Virus genome (UHGV): UHGV-0266300
Reading direction: 5' to 3' (one strand)
Source of the DNA: a virus
Length of the DNA: 41,552 nt
Shown here: in pieces, positions 30,001-36,000 of the stretch
How positions within the stretch are numbered: the first letter of the stretch is position 1
Layout of the letters: each line of letters opens with the position of its first letter
Program-made: the position numbers

Positions 30001-33000
30001 ACAACAACAGGACCTGCAATGCCTGCCGGTGGATCCGCTCAGGAATGCGTGTTGCTGTTAATGCCACCGGTTTCCTCCTGAGCAGGTGCTGTTATCTGAT
30101 ACCCCGCTCTTTCTGCCAGCCGTATGAATGTATCCATGCTGGCAATCAGCTCGCCATCGCGGACTTTGCAGACACCTGTGACTTGGCCATTTTCAATTGT
30201 CATAACGATCTGCACTTTTTCGTGCACAACAGATACAGGGGATAAATTAGCCATCAGTTAATTCCTCCGCTGATATATTTTTCTTTCGCGTAATCAATAA
30301 CCTCTTGAAAAAGGTTGTCTATAATTAACTTTCCGGTTTCAGTCAGGTATTCAGTATGTTGATTAATCCCGATAGCATTCTGGTATGCAGTGTGGATTTC
30401 GGTTTCACCCTCCACCCGGCCCAATTCACCACGGGTAATACCTTCGAAGCGTAACAGCAACTGGTTTATAAACTGTTCAGTTATTTCTATGGTCGTAATG
30501 TTCCCATCCGGAAGGTCAACAATAAGCAGATTACCACCTGTTTTACGTTTTATTCGATGGAGTGCCGCAACAGCTATACGGCGACGATATGTATTAATGG
30601 GTTCATGTGTCATTTGTTATTTCCCGTATGCTTTCCTGAGAAACAGTATTGCAACTGACCAGTATCCTGCATTAGCCATTAATAATGCGGTTTTATAAGC
30701 ACTTCTGTTTTTCATGCATCACCACTATTTTCAGGTTGTGGAAATTCCCGACCAGAGGCCGTTATGTTTTTATGGGTGATTGTTTATTGAGTTTTCTTTA
30801 TTCGTTGCGCAGTGTGTCGATATACGCGTAAGCCATTTCACAGGTTTTATTCATGGAGCGAATGAGGCAACATAAATAATCGTCTGTCTCTCCTGAATCA
30901 GGCGAATTCTTAAATATAAATTCAAGCATGGATGTATTCTCTTTTATTTGTGCTGCCACTTCCTCAAGAATATTTAATGGAGTTATCATGTTCTTTGCTC
31001 CTTAAATGCATCGCATGCGCTTCTGGCGTATTGTTGTGCCAGTAAAAAGATATCATCCGGAAGTTCATCACATTCTTCATCACCGGAAGCCGAAATGATT
31101 AACCCCGCTTCAAGCAGTACGGCAATGTGATGAAAAGCTGTTTCCGGTTCGTTGGTGAGGCCTTTGAACATTTTCATCTTATGCTTCCTCCTGATTTTGT
31201 TTATAAGCATCAGTCAATAACAACATTGGATCACAGCCAAGAACATTAGCCAGAGGGATAAGCATGCTGATGGTTGGTTCGTACTCTCCGCTCTCCCACT
31301 GGATGATAATTTCTTCATCGGGATCGAGCAGTCTGGCGAGTTCGGCTGTTGTTAAGCCGCAGTCTTCGCGTTGGGTGCGAAGACGGTTGTTGATTGCAGA
31401 ATTTTTGTTCTGTAAAAGCATTGCTGACGATAGCTTTCTGGATATGCTATTTGTCATATCCCATGCCAGTCCTGCGCATGACTCTATATCGCTAGAGAGC
31501 GTAGCATCTGGTGTTGCTTTTGCTATTAGTGTAATGAGGCTGCCGAGGTTTTTCAGTTCTTCGAGACAGTCAAGAGTTGTAGCTTTATTGATCATGAGAT
31601 GATACCTCAGTTACGAACTTTGCTTCATGGTAACTAAGGTATTAAGGTGTGGCAAGTGATTTTTGATATTTTGGTTTTTTTTTGTGTCTGGTCAGAAAAT
31701 ATCCCACCTGGCATCAACCACAACACCTACTATTTCGCAATCATTGTCCATTTCTATGATTGGATATTGTGGATTAAGGGGCTTTAGAAACGCCTTTCCC
31801 ATTTCAGAAATATATTTTTTGAATGTTGCTTCATTGGTAGATTTTTTTCTGGCGATGACGTAACACCCTGAAAAAACTTCTTTATCTGGGTTGACAAGGA
31901 TCGACATTCCTTCAGGAAATGTTATTCCTACGGGCGAAGTCATTGAGTCTCCGTGCACTTCCAGCCAGAACCCCCTCTCACCAGCGTATTTTACAGAATG
32001 CCTCCAATTATCCTGATCATACATGTTGTAGTCATCACCAGCAGTTGCGAATAATCCTGCCTGAACCCAGTTAATTACAGGGTAAGAGTGTGCTGTGTCT
32101 CTCTGTGGGCAGCTCTTAACATTATTTTCCCAATGCTTATCTTTTTCATCTCCGTTCTGAAGCCACTGCGGTGAACACTGCAGTGCAGCTGCGACTTTAA
32201 AAAGGGTGTCACCGTTGAAACTTTTTGTAAGGCCTTGCTCGGCTTTACTGATTGCAACTCTGGTGACCCCTGCTTTTTTAGCCAACGCATCTTGCGTTAA
32301 CCCAGCTTTTTGTCGTGCGTTGATGAGGCGTTCACCTAAAGATTTCATTTTTCTTCTCCTTTCATGGCTGCTGATACTAAAGTAACAGAATTTCTTGACG
32401 CTTTGGATTCTCGTGTTTAACATTCTTGGATAACAGAGTATCCGGTGTGAGGCTAAAGAATGACCCTTTATGAAATATTAAAATCTCAATTTAAGACCAA
32501 TGCCGCTATTGGCCGCAGGTTCCCAAAGAAAGGAAGGCCTCGTGGTAGTCAGGGAGTTGGAAAGTGGAAAACGCGGGGCGTTCCGGAGGATGTTGCCATT
32601 CTCTGCCATCTGGATCCGAACATTCCATATACACATCCAAGCTTAGCGCGCACGGGAGAGGTGAAGGGCTTGTATGTCCCAGAATTACGTTCAGACAGAG
32701 ATGCCATCTAGGTACTGCCAGGCAGACGAAGAGTGGATTCAGCAGCAGTTACAGGGGCTGCCTCCGTCACTGAGACGGAAGGTCGCCCTGAAATATGCGG
32801 AGGTATACGAAATCACTTTTGACGCTGAGCCTGTTTCATTCCGCAAGGAGAACAGAGCAAGGCACGAAGCAAACACAAGGCTCCGCTTGTTTGTGAGAAA
32901 TCAGGGCAGAGCTTTACAGGGGTATACAACTCAGCCGCCCCTGGCAGGAACGCAATCGCGCTCCTGATTGGTACCGGGCTTAAAGGTGTCCGGTGGCTGA

Positions 33001-36000
33001 ATCCCAAATCTCATTGCATTTTTGTACTAGTTAAAGGGTACGTAGAAAATTCAACGAGAGGAGGGGAGGGGGAGGAGTGCCCGTGTGTTAGTGCGAAGCA
33101 CTGGAACAGGCTTTTCCAACAGACGGGTACATAGGTTAGGTAGATCTCGATCTAAAGGGGGATACCCCTGAAAAAACGGCTGTACCAGAAAGCTAGTACA
33201 AGATGGATAAAAAGTATGAGTGAAGACCTGAAGCAAAATTTAATCGCTCTTCTGGAAGAGCAATTCATTCGCTCCGATGACAAAGTTGTTTTCGATTATG
33301 TGATGCAGAAAAAAATCAAGTCTCAGGGATACCACCTGCAACGCAATTTCAGCATCAGCATCAGCATCAGCGGTGGTCGTAAAGGGTTTATTGGTTGCCT
33401 GGTTACATCATCAGACGGCCAGCAGTGTGCCATTGAGGTCGATAAGAAGTCTCCCCGCAACCGTTCATTGATGAAGCTGGCTCAGCTACCTGAGGGGATG
33501 TCAGGTTTTGTCCTGCTCAGGGACGGTAAGCACCCTCTTCGATATAGCGAGAACGGAATTGACGTTATTCGTGCGACGAAATTTAAGTGAGTTGATTCGG
33601 AAGGGGGCTGGCAGCCTTTGGGGAGGCCACCAGCCATGTGAGGGGGAATCCATGAAAACCACATCACAAAATTATTATCTCATCAGCACGGGAGCTGCAC
33701 AATGGAGCTGACGATCACGCCGAATTTTGCACAGGAACGAGCGCTAAACATGTTGCGCCGTGACTGGAAGGCAAACGACACCTTCATGGTGTATTCGCCA
33801 ACAGGTAGCGGTAAAACGGGTCTGGCAGCCTTCATAGTTGCTGGTTTTGTCAGCCGTGGTATGCGCGCTCTGTTCTGTGTTCCGTACACCATCCTGATTG
33901 GTCAGACGGCTAATCGGTTCGTGCAGTATGGTTTACCTGGAGATGAAATCGGTTATATCTGGGCGGATCACCCGAACTACGATCCGGACCGGAAAATTCA
34001 GATTGCCAGCGCTGATACGCTTATTCGTCGTGTTTTTCCTGAAAATATCGATCTGCTGATTATCGACGAAGCGCACCTGCGTAAAAAACGCATCCTGAAG
34101 GATATCGAACGTCTGCGCGGCAAAGGCGTAAAGGTGATTGGCCTGTCGGGTACTCCGTTTTCCCCGTTCCTGGGCAAATACTATGACCGACTGATTAAAC
34201 CGACCACCATCGGCGAGTTAATCCAGCGTGGCGATCTGAGTAAATACGAATTTTACGCGCCAACTAAGCCGGATCTGAAAGGTGTTAAAACCACATCTTC
34301 GCTTGAGTACGGCCGCGATTACAACGAAACACAGCTGGCTGAAATCATGTGCGGCTCTACGCTGGTGGGCGACATTGTACAGAACTGGCTGGAGAATGGT
34401 CGGGATCTACCTACCATCGCTTTCTGCGTCAACGTAGCCCACGCCAATTACCTGACAATCCAGTTTAACCTGGCGGGTGTTAACGCTGAGGTAATGACCG
34501 CCGACACTCCGGTAGATGAGCGCCAGACCATCATTCACCGCTTTGAAACCGGTGCAACGAAAATCATCGTTAGTGTGGGCGTTCTGGTAGCCGGATTCGA
34601 TAGTGACGTTCGTTGCATCATCTACGCCAGGCCAACAAAAAGCGAAATTCGCTGGTTGCAGGCACTCGGGCGTGGGCTGCGCACCGCACCGGGTAAAGCG
34701 TCCTGCCTTATCTTCGATCACAGCGGCACCGTGCACCGTTTGGGTTATCCGGATTCAATCGAGTACGACGAGCTTCCCGGTAAGTCTGACGGCATGGAGG
34801 AAAGCGTGCGCCGGGCAGTTGAGGAACGGGCCGAAAAACTGCCACATGAATGCCCTCAATGCCACTACATGAAGCCAGCAGGCGTCTATGTTTGCCCGAA
34901 ATGTGGACACAAGCCGCTGCGAGGTGAAGACGTTGATACTGACACTAGCCGCAAACTTAATAAGCTGGGTAAAAATCAGCATCAGTCGACGAAGGCAGAG
35001 AAACAGTCCTGGTGGAGTCAGATCAAATTTTATCAGCGCCAGCGTGCTTCGCTGGGGCGTCCAGTCAGTGACGGATGGTGTGCTCACACTTTCCGGGAAA
35101 AGTTCGGCGAGTGGCCTGACGGACTGAGTAACTTTCCGATGGAAATTACCCCTGAGGTAAATAACTACATCAGACACAAACTGATCCGGTTTGCCAAAGG
35201 CCACCAGCGGGTTCAGAAGGTCACTGAAAACGCACAAACAACGATTGATTTATCTCAGGAACGTGATGAACGACGTGAGATACCGGCAGGCAGTGAGGCC
35301 TGGCGCATCATGCAGGCAAAGCACCAACTCCAGAAAATATAAACAGTCTGAGTCAGTAAGATGAAAACAGCAGATGCAGCGAAAGGCCGCTGGCCTGAAA
35401 TATTAGAGCACTTCGGTCTGCCGCCGATAACCGGAAAAAATCACTTCAAGGGTGAATGCCCGGTATGCGGTGCACGTGGCAAGTTCCGAATTGATGACCG
35501 CGACGGTGCAGGAACGTGGATCTGTGTATGTGGTAGTGGCGATGGTATGAAACTTGTCACCCTGACACAGGCGAAGCCATTTAACGAGATTTGTACCGAA
35601 ATAGACCGCCTGATCGGTAATGATTACCAACGGGTTAAAATCCCGGTAACCAGCAGCGCCACCAGCTTACGCAAACGGGTATTGAGCAAGTTTTCAAAAC
35701 TGGAGGCACTGCGTGGTACATCCGGCGCAGCGTATCTTAATTCTCGTGGAATATTCAGTCTTCCTGCTGAGGCGATCCGGTTCAATGCCAGGCAGAGACA
35801 CAACGGGAGTGTGTTCCAGTCTCTTTATTCACTTGCTACGGACGATAAAGGGGAGTTGTGCTATCTGCACCAGACTCTGCTTGATGGTGATAAAAAAGCA
35901 GATATCGGTAGCAGTGCAAAGCGCCTCAAATCCCTGCAGGAAGATAACTATTTGGATCACGCTCGTTCTGTAGCTATCCGCATGTTTCCTGTCGCCAGCA

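Follow-up and report, generated by a model that had tools for sequence, protein, structure and literature searches.

A conserved non-coding element in a phage helicase-primase module is a candidate replication origin or priming region

What lies to the right of the cI operator region of a lambdoid prophage, when the place of cro and cII looks unlike either gene? The question is raised by the virus genome UHGV-0266300, a stretch of 41,552 nt that was analysed as a whole and is called the window here (all positions are window coordinates), in which an earlier note had marked the region 32460-33215 as anomalous. That note had described a first open reading frame (ORF) overlapping a second one of 97 amino acids (aa), a non-coding stretch of about 250 bp and, within the latter, a 22-nt purine-only tract, and all of this was confirmed: the ORFs, of 83 and 97 aa, overlap by 38 nt, the stretch measures 248 bp and the tract was read directly (Table 1). 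Gene order and Pfam domains place the region in the immunity and early-right part of a lambdoid prophage. We found that a self-contained phage replication module has its left end here. The module is composed of the 97-aa protein (p97), a non-coding element of ~290 bp, a superfamily 2 (SF2) helicase and a Toprim primase, and it is joined, inside the 3' end of cro, to a phiP27-type immunity module containing cI and an intact first ORF (ORF1). The element is a possible origin or priming region of that module.

A replication module and its left boundary

The order cro, p97, gap of ~250 bp, helicase and primase recurs in phi467, Fels-1, Klebsiella phages, YP3 and TL-2011c. Across ~200 phage loci (numbered with an L where one is singled out), p97, the non-coding element, the SF2 helicase and the Toprim primase are kept together while the upstream immunity genes vary. 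A first set, 80 IMG/VR loci retrieved with p97, keeps one order (p97, gap, p124, an optional 124-aa ORF, helicase and primase), with cI and cro variable. In the 120 loci found by the core DNA motif alone, p97 lay at -360 to -470, the helicase at +150 to +830. The core-motif loci with enough flanking sequence gave only two exceptions to this linkage, a chance match (L180) and a deletion remnant (L147). The latter (IMGVR_UViG_2537561991_000013, 3263-5900) carries a YdaS-type cro, p97 and a complete element, with neither helicase nor primase; it was ruled out as an informative exception, being a deletion derivative in which the element is fused directly to lipoprotein and lambda-like terminase genes. 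The element was detected by megablast in 58 of 5,426 complete E. coli genomes.

The left boundary of the module could be placed within cro. By megablast, 32350-32667 matches phiP27 at 89%, and 32662-33685 matches phi467 at 97.7% and Fels-1 at 85.7%. The protein tails of the ORF1 family diverge after HPSLxxTGE, and the C-terminal tail of ORF1, ARTGEVKGLYVPELRSDRDAI, is also attached to an unrelated YdaS-family Cro (P0164; L147), which places the module boundary within the last ~20 codons of cro. The 38-nt overlap of cro and p97 is present in Fels-1 too, and tail and overlap recur together with other cro types. The tail and the overlap therefore belong to the replication module, and the junction is ordinary lambdoid mosaicism, neither damage nor scar.

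ORF1 matches phrog_4749 and belongs to a family of 44 protein clusters of typically 65-75 aa, which it exceeds by ~15-20 residues at the C-terminus. In the AlphaFold2 model, residues 1-60, the conserved domain, form a small helical domain with a predicted local distance difference test score (pLDDT) above 89, and residues 61-83 are disordered; the tail, from about residue 62 to 83, is encoded by the left edge of the replication module. A Foldseek search with this model ranked Cro proteins at the top, with non-significant E-values, and searches of PDB sequences with ORF1, p97 and p124 returned nothing significant. As in all-alpha Cro proteins of the P22/N15 type, ORF1 is small, has a helix-turn-helix (HTH) fold like that of solved Cro proteins, and opens a rightward operon divergently from a cI-type repressor over a short operator region, here 111 bp long and containing the candidate pR-like promoter. 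The model and this placement indicate an intact Cro-like protein, predicted to bind the operator, and since ORF1 stands opposite cI and fits a Cro analogue, the earlier impression that the first ORF does not resemble Cro was not supported. Directly downstream of the cI-like repressor, a second HTH_3 protein of 138 aa is encoded on the minus strand (31179-31595), placed as in phiP27 (P27p10) and phi467 ('DicA').

The second ORF, p97, matches phrog_852 over its full length, belongs to a family of 479 clusters every one of which is annotated as hypothetical, and has neither a Pfam domain nor an NCBIfam match. Among 1.8 billion representative proteins, its relatives form 273 clusters at 50% identity, nearly all of them stand-alone proteins of 66-120 aa; a search for domain fusions gave few longer relatives, none with an informative domain. 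Homologues were found in 199 phage records, including TL-2011c, P13374, phi191, Vibrio phages and Serratia phage Eta, and in all relatives inspected (TL-2011c, Vibrio phage 1.233.B and Serratia phage Eta) the homologue adjoins a helicase gene. The family has an invariant basic helix, RKENRARHEANxRLRxFV, followed by a QGYTxxPPLAG tail, and the AlphaFold2 model has three helices and a disordered tail with a pLDDT of only 63. This low-confidence model has no HTH-like match, no Pfam HTH was found, and hhalign gave a probability of 0.2% against lambda CII and 0.3% against lambda N. With no CII homology and no HTH found, a lambda CII-type lysogeny activator was ruled out, and p97 represents a conserved family that is not CII-like. 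Comparison with related prophages, which the earlier note had suggested, shows an intact cro-like gene at the expected position, but p97 rather than cII in second place.

Circular extrachromosomal records of 37-43 kb from Klebsiella, Enterobacter and Morganella also carry the helicase-primase module. These 'plasmids', including NZ_LR890473.1 and NZ_CP076549.1 (L210 and L211), are whole phage genomes with the module, the two circular records inspected are without a typed plasmid replicon, and such records could be phage-plasmids or assembled replicative circles.

Conservation and parts of the non-coding element

Comparison with Klebsiella, Salmonella and E. coli relatives showed that the tract and core (33056-33150) are 92-96% identical, compared with 58-82% for the p97 gene, 63-83% for p124 and 71-77% for the 5' end of the helicase gene. 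Purifying selection on the non-coding element (~290 bp, 32968 to ~33260) is stronger than on the neighbouring genes. The 127 distinct versions of the element that were used for the motif census share one layout, which runs, from 5' to 3', hairpin H1, left palindrome (L site), G-tract, hairpin H3, GGAANAG/CTTTTCC, GGTTAGGTAGATC box, A-tract and right palindrome (R site). The earlier note had allowed that the locus might prove unremarkable, with two intact Cro/CII-type proteins and ordinary intergenic DNA; both ORFs are indeed intact and conserved, but p97 is not CII-like and the gap is not ordinary.

Two parts of the element behave as hairpins of the sense strand. The loop of H1 is an invariant TTAAAGGY in relatives, most of which have two copies of the hairpin; no second H1-like hairpin was found in the window. 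In the 90 distinct hairpins used for H1 statistics, 90.6% of cells are paired, six of the seven pairs change on both sides, and the covariation score is 0.611, as against 0.256 in shuffles (0/500 reach it) and at most 0.18 in slid controls. Mismatches comprise 63 G.T wobbles and 8 A.C, which indicates that the hairpin forms on the sense (+) strand. In H3, GTGCGAAGCAC is replaced by GCGCGAAGCGC in L011, L051 and L059, a compensatory change, and two T.G wobbles occur on the + strand only.

The purine-only tract, GAGAGGAGGGGAGGGGGAGGAG, is the longest purine or pyrimidine run in the 41.5-kb window, a length of 22 nt being reached in 2 of 300 mononucleotide shuffles. Its sequence varies by lineage and its G-richness is kept: all 127 elements have at least 14 G in 25 nt on the sense strand, versus at most 12 C, and a two-tetrad G-quadruplex pattern is present in 126 and a three-tetrad one in 84.

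The core is marked by sequence motifs. Of the inverted pair of the 7-mer GGAANAG, M2 is found in 121/127 elements and M1 in 111/127; a third copy, M3, is present in 124/127, is invariant in our alignment A1, and lies in non-coding DNA in loci without the 124-aa ORF. Position 5 of GGAANAG is free (C, T, G or A), which argues for a repeated DNA motif rather than a helix. The GGTTAGGTAGATC box occurs in 123/127 elements, with a GATC no more than 20 nt from it in 125/127, and a run of at least four A in 118/127. The short repeats that the earlier note had listed are real, but conserved only in part: both GGGTACGTAG (33036) and GGGTACATAG (33125), copies of GGGTAC(G/A)TAG, are present and only the second is kept in relatives, and of the three TAAAGG (32981, 33032 and 33153) only the first, in the H1 loop, is found in nearly all of them.

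Table 1. Positions of the features in the window
Feature	Position	Strand	Basis or remark
cI-like repressor	31692-32348	minus	HTH_3 and Peptidase_S24 domains
pR-like promoter, TTGACG-17-TAACAT	32395-32423	+	consensus match only, 9/12
ORF1, Cro-like, 83 aa	32460-32711	+	intact; all-alpha
Mosaic junction, immunity module (phiP27-like)/replication module (phi467/Fels-1-like)	32655-32667		megablast, protein tails
p97, 97 aa	32674-32967	+	first gene of the replication module
ORF-free gap	32968-33215		248 bp
H1 hairpin	32973-32994	+	stem ACCGGGC/GTCCGGT; invariant 8-nt loop TTAAAGGT; 6 nt after p97 stop
L site, imperfect palindrome TGTACTAG-N-GGTACG	33023-33042		~85 bp left of core
G-rich purine-only tract GAGAGGAGGGGAGGGGGAGGAG	33056-33077	+ (sense, non-template)	read directly, 22 nt
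H3 hairpin around mini-hairpin motif GTGCGAAGCAC (33091-33101)	33084-33108	+	GCGAAGC type
M1 (GGAACAG) and M2 (CTTTTCC), inverted pair of 7-mer GGAANAG	33103-33117		motif census
GGTTAGGTAGATC box with two GATC (Dam) sites at 33143 and 33149	33134-33152		motif census
A-tract (33171-33176), then R site TGTACCAGAAAGCTAGTACA (33181-33200)	33171-33200		motif census, mismatch counts
M3 TGGAAGAG, third GGAANAG copy	33253-33260		within p124 codons 13-15, ~135 nt downstream of M1/M2
p124, optional 124-aa ORF	33216-33590	+	phrog_1347
SF2 (RadD-like) helicase	33702-35342	+	Pfam ResIII, Helicase_C
P4-alpha-type Zn-ribbon/Toprim primase	35361-36329	+	Pfam Toprim_3, Zn_Ribbon_Prim

The palindromes that flank the core follow other rules. 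GTAC occurs six times in the 248-bp gap against 109 times in the whole window (0.65 expected, Poisson P ~6e-5). The family consensus of the L site is GTACTAG N4-6 CTAGTAC. The site keeps its place and its GTAC half-sites, its single strand hardly folds in the window (-1.0 kcal/mol), and other site classes replace it in L011, L051, L166 and TL-2011c. The distance of the R site from M2 is fixed (+62 to +87), and its mismatches are of both kinds, G.T and A.C (37 versus 53), favouring neither strand; on the minus strand it is terminator-like in this lineage only. Pairing between the L and R sites was rejected, as they are complementary and palindromic without covariation and were read as repeated DNA motifs, and so was pairing of CTTTTCCA with TGGAAGAG, which are complementary without covariation, the partner being invariant and the variable position including disruptive bases. 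Small ORFs within the gap (61 aa on the minus strand, 33051-33236, and mini-ORFs after the Shine-Dalgarno-like tract) were set aside because, by eye, they are not kept from one lineage to another. Where a lineage has no GTAC palindromes, its flanking sites are tandem 8-mers, such as AGACGTCT-ATATGTCT and AGACGTCC-AGATGTAA, located at 3340-3370 and 3500-3530 of L011 and seen also in L059, L166 and L148, all of them IMG/VR loci. These sites resemble the 'metboxes' of the MetJ operator, whose consensus is AGACGTCT.

The class of the flanking sites changes with the gene that occupies the slot between element and helicase. Alternatives in this slot are p124, a 43%-identical variant, the homologue gp29 of TL-2011c, and a NUMOD4/HNH endonuclease (slot occupants compared in the window at 33216-33590, in L011 at 3535-4155 and in L207 at 3990-4367). 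GTAC sites go with p124, TATTTAGCC with its 43%-identical variant, TTAGTTGC with gp29 and AGACGTC with the HNH gene, a pattern that suggests free-standing homing nucleases. The occupant in L011 is a NUMOD4+HNH_3 homing endonuclease gene of I-HmuI-like type; p124 has a D..ExDxK motif, seen by eye only, and its homologue gp29 (38% identical) a sub-threshold match to REase_MTES_1575, so that p124 is possibly a restriction-endonuclease-like nuclease. It is present in 46 of 185 loci and absent from 117, which ruled it out as an essential initiator. Neither p97 nor the helicase can be the reader of the GTAC palindromes, since in L011 both are 99-100% identical to those of the window and the palindromes differ.

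Further to the right lies a long hairpin rich in GC, GGCTGG...CCAGCC (33606-33635). After it come a strong Shine-Dalgarno sequence and an upstream ORF of 19 codons (33652-33711, MKTTSQNYYLISTGAAQWS) whose stop overlaps the helicase ATG (CAATGGAGCTGA). This arrangement is kept in p124-less relatives and in YP3, and 33606-33711 looks like a translationally coupled leader for the helicase. The helicase matches the NCBIfam RadD model at E = 4e-26, far below the family cut-off, and 3' of the primase the plus strand carries a 285-aa ORF and then a Q-like antiterminator.

How the element may act

The element may be the cis-acting replication origin or priming region of the helicase-primase module, possibly aided by transcription. 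We hold this reading tentatively, at somewhat less than an even chance; among the proposals of the earlier note, a cis element such as the origin of this module is the one that fits the evidence best, as a role that we infer. It draws on the constant linkage of element, p97 and helicase, on the conservation and common motif layout of the element and, indirectly, on the circular records of 37-43 kb that carry the module. Rightward transcription from pR would pass across the element, and the G-tract on the non-template strand, a placement that favours a stable RNA:DNA hybrid, a G-quadruplex in the displaced strand, or both, would stabilise such structures as an R-loop and so open DNA that lacks an AT-rich unwinding element. 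The displaced sense strand would then fold H1, with its TTAAAGGT loop, and, in this lineage, the GCGAAGC mini-hairpin, and the folded hairpins would serve as single-strand initiation signals for the phage primase and helicase. The three GGAANAG copies and the GGTTAGGTAGATC box with its GATC sites could be read by proteins universal to the module, that is, p97, the C-terminal region of the helicase or the primase. The flanking GTAC palindromes would be accessory, as they vary by lineage and follow the optional nuclease gene rather than p97 or the helicase.

Several observations point to DNA rather than RNA as the functional form. The conserved blocks are primary-sequence motifs, including the repeat with a free position, GATC sites and A-tract are conserved, the L site is without a single-strand fold in the window and the R site has mixed mismatch types, and a strong hairpin predicted in the core, GTGCCCGT...ACGGGTAC, is not kept in L011 or L051. 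H1 and H3 favour a single-stranded species of the sense strand, either RNA or displaced DNA. As at the single-strand initiation (ssi) sites of G4 and RSF1010, stable hairpins with a GCGNAGC mini-hairpin are found on one strand (H1 by its covariation, H3 by the GTGCGAAGCAC to GCGCGAAGCGC change), and, as at R-loop origins, G-runs of the non-template strand lie downstream of a promoter, the pR-like one ~640 bp upstream. Where an iteron-type origin would have at least three tandem direct repeats, the repeated motifs here, GGAANAG three times in mixed orientation and TAGTAC half-sites three to four times, are dispersed over ~230 bp and not tandem.

Other results weigh against an origin. In the element we found no DnaA box or IHF site at up to one mismatch, no tandem array of at least three iterons and no AT-rich element for unwinding (maximum 70% AT in any 30 nt), and in the literature no mapped origin for modules of the Fels-1 or Eru1 type. 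H3 is absent from the commonest, G-extended lineages such as L019, and the low-confidence model of p97 (pLDDT 63) gives no support for nucleic-acid binding. The primase, like p97 and the helicase, is 99-100% identical in L011, where the palindrome class is different, so no module protein is assignable to these sites. The loci are related enterobacterial prophages, so that their counts overstate independent events, and the sense-strand polarity of H1, H3 and the G-tract fits RNA of the pR transcript equally well.

A more far-reaching version, which we regard as unlikely, would make the element a new type of phage origin without AT-rich unwinding, in which a pR-driven R-loop, G-quadruplex or both, together with sense-strand hairpins, load the RadD-like helicase and P4-type primase with p97 as specificity factor, and in which the same mechanism drives replication and toxin-gene dosage of the Eru1 Shiga toxin (Stx) phages.

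The main rival to the origin reading, which we consider possible, if on the doubtful side, takes the element for a regulatory leader RNA carried by the pR transcript. H1, which most relatives have in duplicate, would then serve as an RNA operator for a protein, the small basic p97 encoded just upstream being one candidate binder, and the G-tract and hairpins would control processing, stability, translation or read-through into helicase and primase. The covarying stem of H1, its invariant loop and its 63:8 wobble bias to the sense strand are what such an operator would show, and H1 starts 6 nt past the stop of p97, a protein with an invariant arginine-rich helix; in every version, moreover, the G-tract lies on the sense strand, the one that is transcribed. 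Against this, H1 has no second counterpart in the window, p97 is unlike lambda N, covariation is limited to H1 and partly H3, the long core hairpin is not conserved between lineages, and conservation is highest in sequence motifs, one of which has a free position. Folding of the gap as a whole is better than that of shuffled sequence (z = -3.7), but the minus strand does nearly as well (z = -3.55), and with both strands at z ~ -3.6 the whole-gap RNA fold does not discriminate. RNAalifold on 59 representatives gave little beyond H1, from an alignment too heterogeneous to use. Nor was an intrinsic terminator found on the + strand between p97 and helicase, and a permissive Rfam 15 scan of 31500-34500 on both strands gave no match at E <= 1. 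The absence of an Rfam match and of a conserved fold in the core also speaks against the stand-alone small RNA that the earlier note had offered as an alternative; the known prophage small RNAs AgvB/AsxR and Pas/STnc100 were rejected as unrelated and located downstream of PR' or in other contexts.

The flanking sites could instead be taken as the centre of a double-stranded DNA transcription-control region, with GTAC palindromes and GGAANAG as operators that gate an internal promoter for a replication or nuclease gene, which seems to us quite improbable. That the half-sites of L and R are preserved in sequence and do not covary, that the L site has no single-strand fold in the window and that the L/R class follows the class of the downstream small ORF would all agree with operators. 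No promoter-like site was found in the gap, though, 117 of 185 loci keep GTAC sites without the small ORF, conservation is best in the core and not in the palindromes, and the G-tract, the strand-specific hairpins and the wobble bias would be left unexplained. The weakest account, a recombination scar, as the earlier note had first proposed, or decaying remnant of module replacement with spurious ORFs and a functionless spacer, can draw on the mosaic junction and on the ~15-20 extra C-terminal residues of ORF1 but has next to no probability, contradicted as it is by two ORFs that are full-length members of large families, by a tail and 38-nt overlap recurring with other cro types and in Fels-1, by an arrangement that recurs in relatives, and by a spacer core conserved at 92-96% across genera.

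Whether the element acts as an origin or as a leader RNA, annotation of this region as a defective cro/cII locus would be wrong. Helicase-primase modules of the Eru1 type are widespread among prophages of enterobacteria, and the Stx2a phages behind the outbreaks of O104:H4 in 2011 and O103:H25 in 2006 carry them. With a candidate cis element (95-290 bp) whose coordinates are exact and whose motifs can be mutated, the origin question becomes directly testable. A G-rich, hairpin-bearing design is unusual for a candidate phage replication cis element, its function being predicted. If dependent on G-tract and transcription, it would be a bacterial-virus example of a mechanism known mainly from ColE1, T4 and mitochondria; if the element acts as RNA, H1 would be a new class of protein-binding hairpin.

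Comparison with known systems

The Eru1 Stx phages (TL-2011c; P13374 of O104:H4; phi191) have the same module family with a corresponding gene set. TL-2011c shares the gene order, with a p97 homologue 53%, gp29 (p124-like) 38%, helicase 66% and primase 57.5% identical; the third Eru1 gene is NinB/Orf, where the window has the 285-aa ORF. Its 220-bp gap keeps the G-tract (GAGGAGGGGGTAAGGGGGTGGAG) and GGTACATAGGTTAGGTAGATCAC, that is, the GGTTAGGTAGATC box, and differs in its palindromes, TTAGTTGC/GCAACTAA, and in having neither a TTAAAGG hairpin nor CTTTTCC. The p97 homologue of TL-2011c (L207, NC_019442.1; 3486-3770, record ~18660-18940) has no annotated coding sequence in RefSeq, which means that the published Eru1 gene list misses a conserved gene. 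The Eru1 papers describe genes only, with no origin and no p97 (PMC8044961, PMC8951638).

A second point of reference is the element's position right of cro in the pR operon, which recalls oriLambda. The origins of lambda and lambdoid phages lie inside gene O and comprise iterons, an AT-rich purine-asymmetric tract and a palindrome, and oriLambda needs pR transcription and has a purine-asymmetric tract. The element likewise has short repeats, palindromes and a strand-asymmetric purine tract, and dependence on pR would be expected. It differs in lying outside any initiator gene, in a module without O and P proteins, in a tract that is G-rich rather than AT-rich, and in lacking both a tandem array of four iterons and an AT-rich unwinding region.

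Strand-specific hairpins, one of them of the GCGAAGC type, liken the element to the G4/St-1 origin and to ssiA/ssiB of RSF1010 oriV. DNA mini-hairpins GCGNAGC, found in RSF1010 ssiA and where primase starts in phages G4 and St-1, are extraordinarily stable, and much weaker as RNA than as DNA (PMC13037366). RSF1010, too, encodes its own helicase and primase, but it has 3.5 iterons and an iteron-binding RepC, and its two ssi hairpins are on opposite strands, whereas the supported hairpins of the element are both on the sense strand and priming is a prediction.

R-loop origins offer a further parallel. ColE1, T4 oriF and mitochondrial conserved sequence block II (CSBII) use R-loops stabilised by G-runs. 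The element resembles ColE1 RNA II, T4 oriF/oriG and CSBII in having non-template G-runs downstream of a strong promoter, and the helicase of the module, as an SF2 protein, belongs to the same superfamily as RadD, RecG and PriA. In those origins the transcript itself is the primer, whereas this module has its own primase and the R-loop is a proposal.

The lambda N/nutR boxB system shares with H1 and p97 a sense-strand hairpin with an invariant loop and covarying stem, downstream of cro and adjoining a small arginine-rich protein. Here, unlike in lambda, a conserved boxA is missing (the Klebsiella relatives do not keep the boxA-like CGCTCCTGA), there is no second site for the leftward operon, no downstream terminators were found, and the basic helix of p97 is internal rather than N-terminal in a protein that travels with replication genes. 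N/nut-type antitermination was rejected for p97 and H1 on the hhalign probability of 0.3%, the single H1-like hairpin and the lack of + strand terminators from p97 to the helicase.

A distant relative lends indirect support, by analogy, to the reading of the element as an origin. In Vibrio phage 1.233.B (L208, 3756-4107), an intrinsic terminator comes after the p97 homologue, and then an AT-rich stretch and three to four repeats of the GACAGAACCTGTC type, which stand upstream of a RepL/HTH_36 initiator gene and then of helicase and primase. From its motifs, this gap looks like a classical origin or operator at the position equivalent to that of the element.

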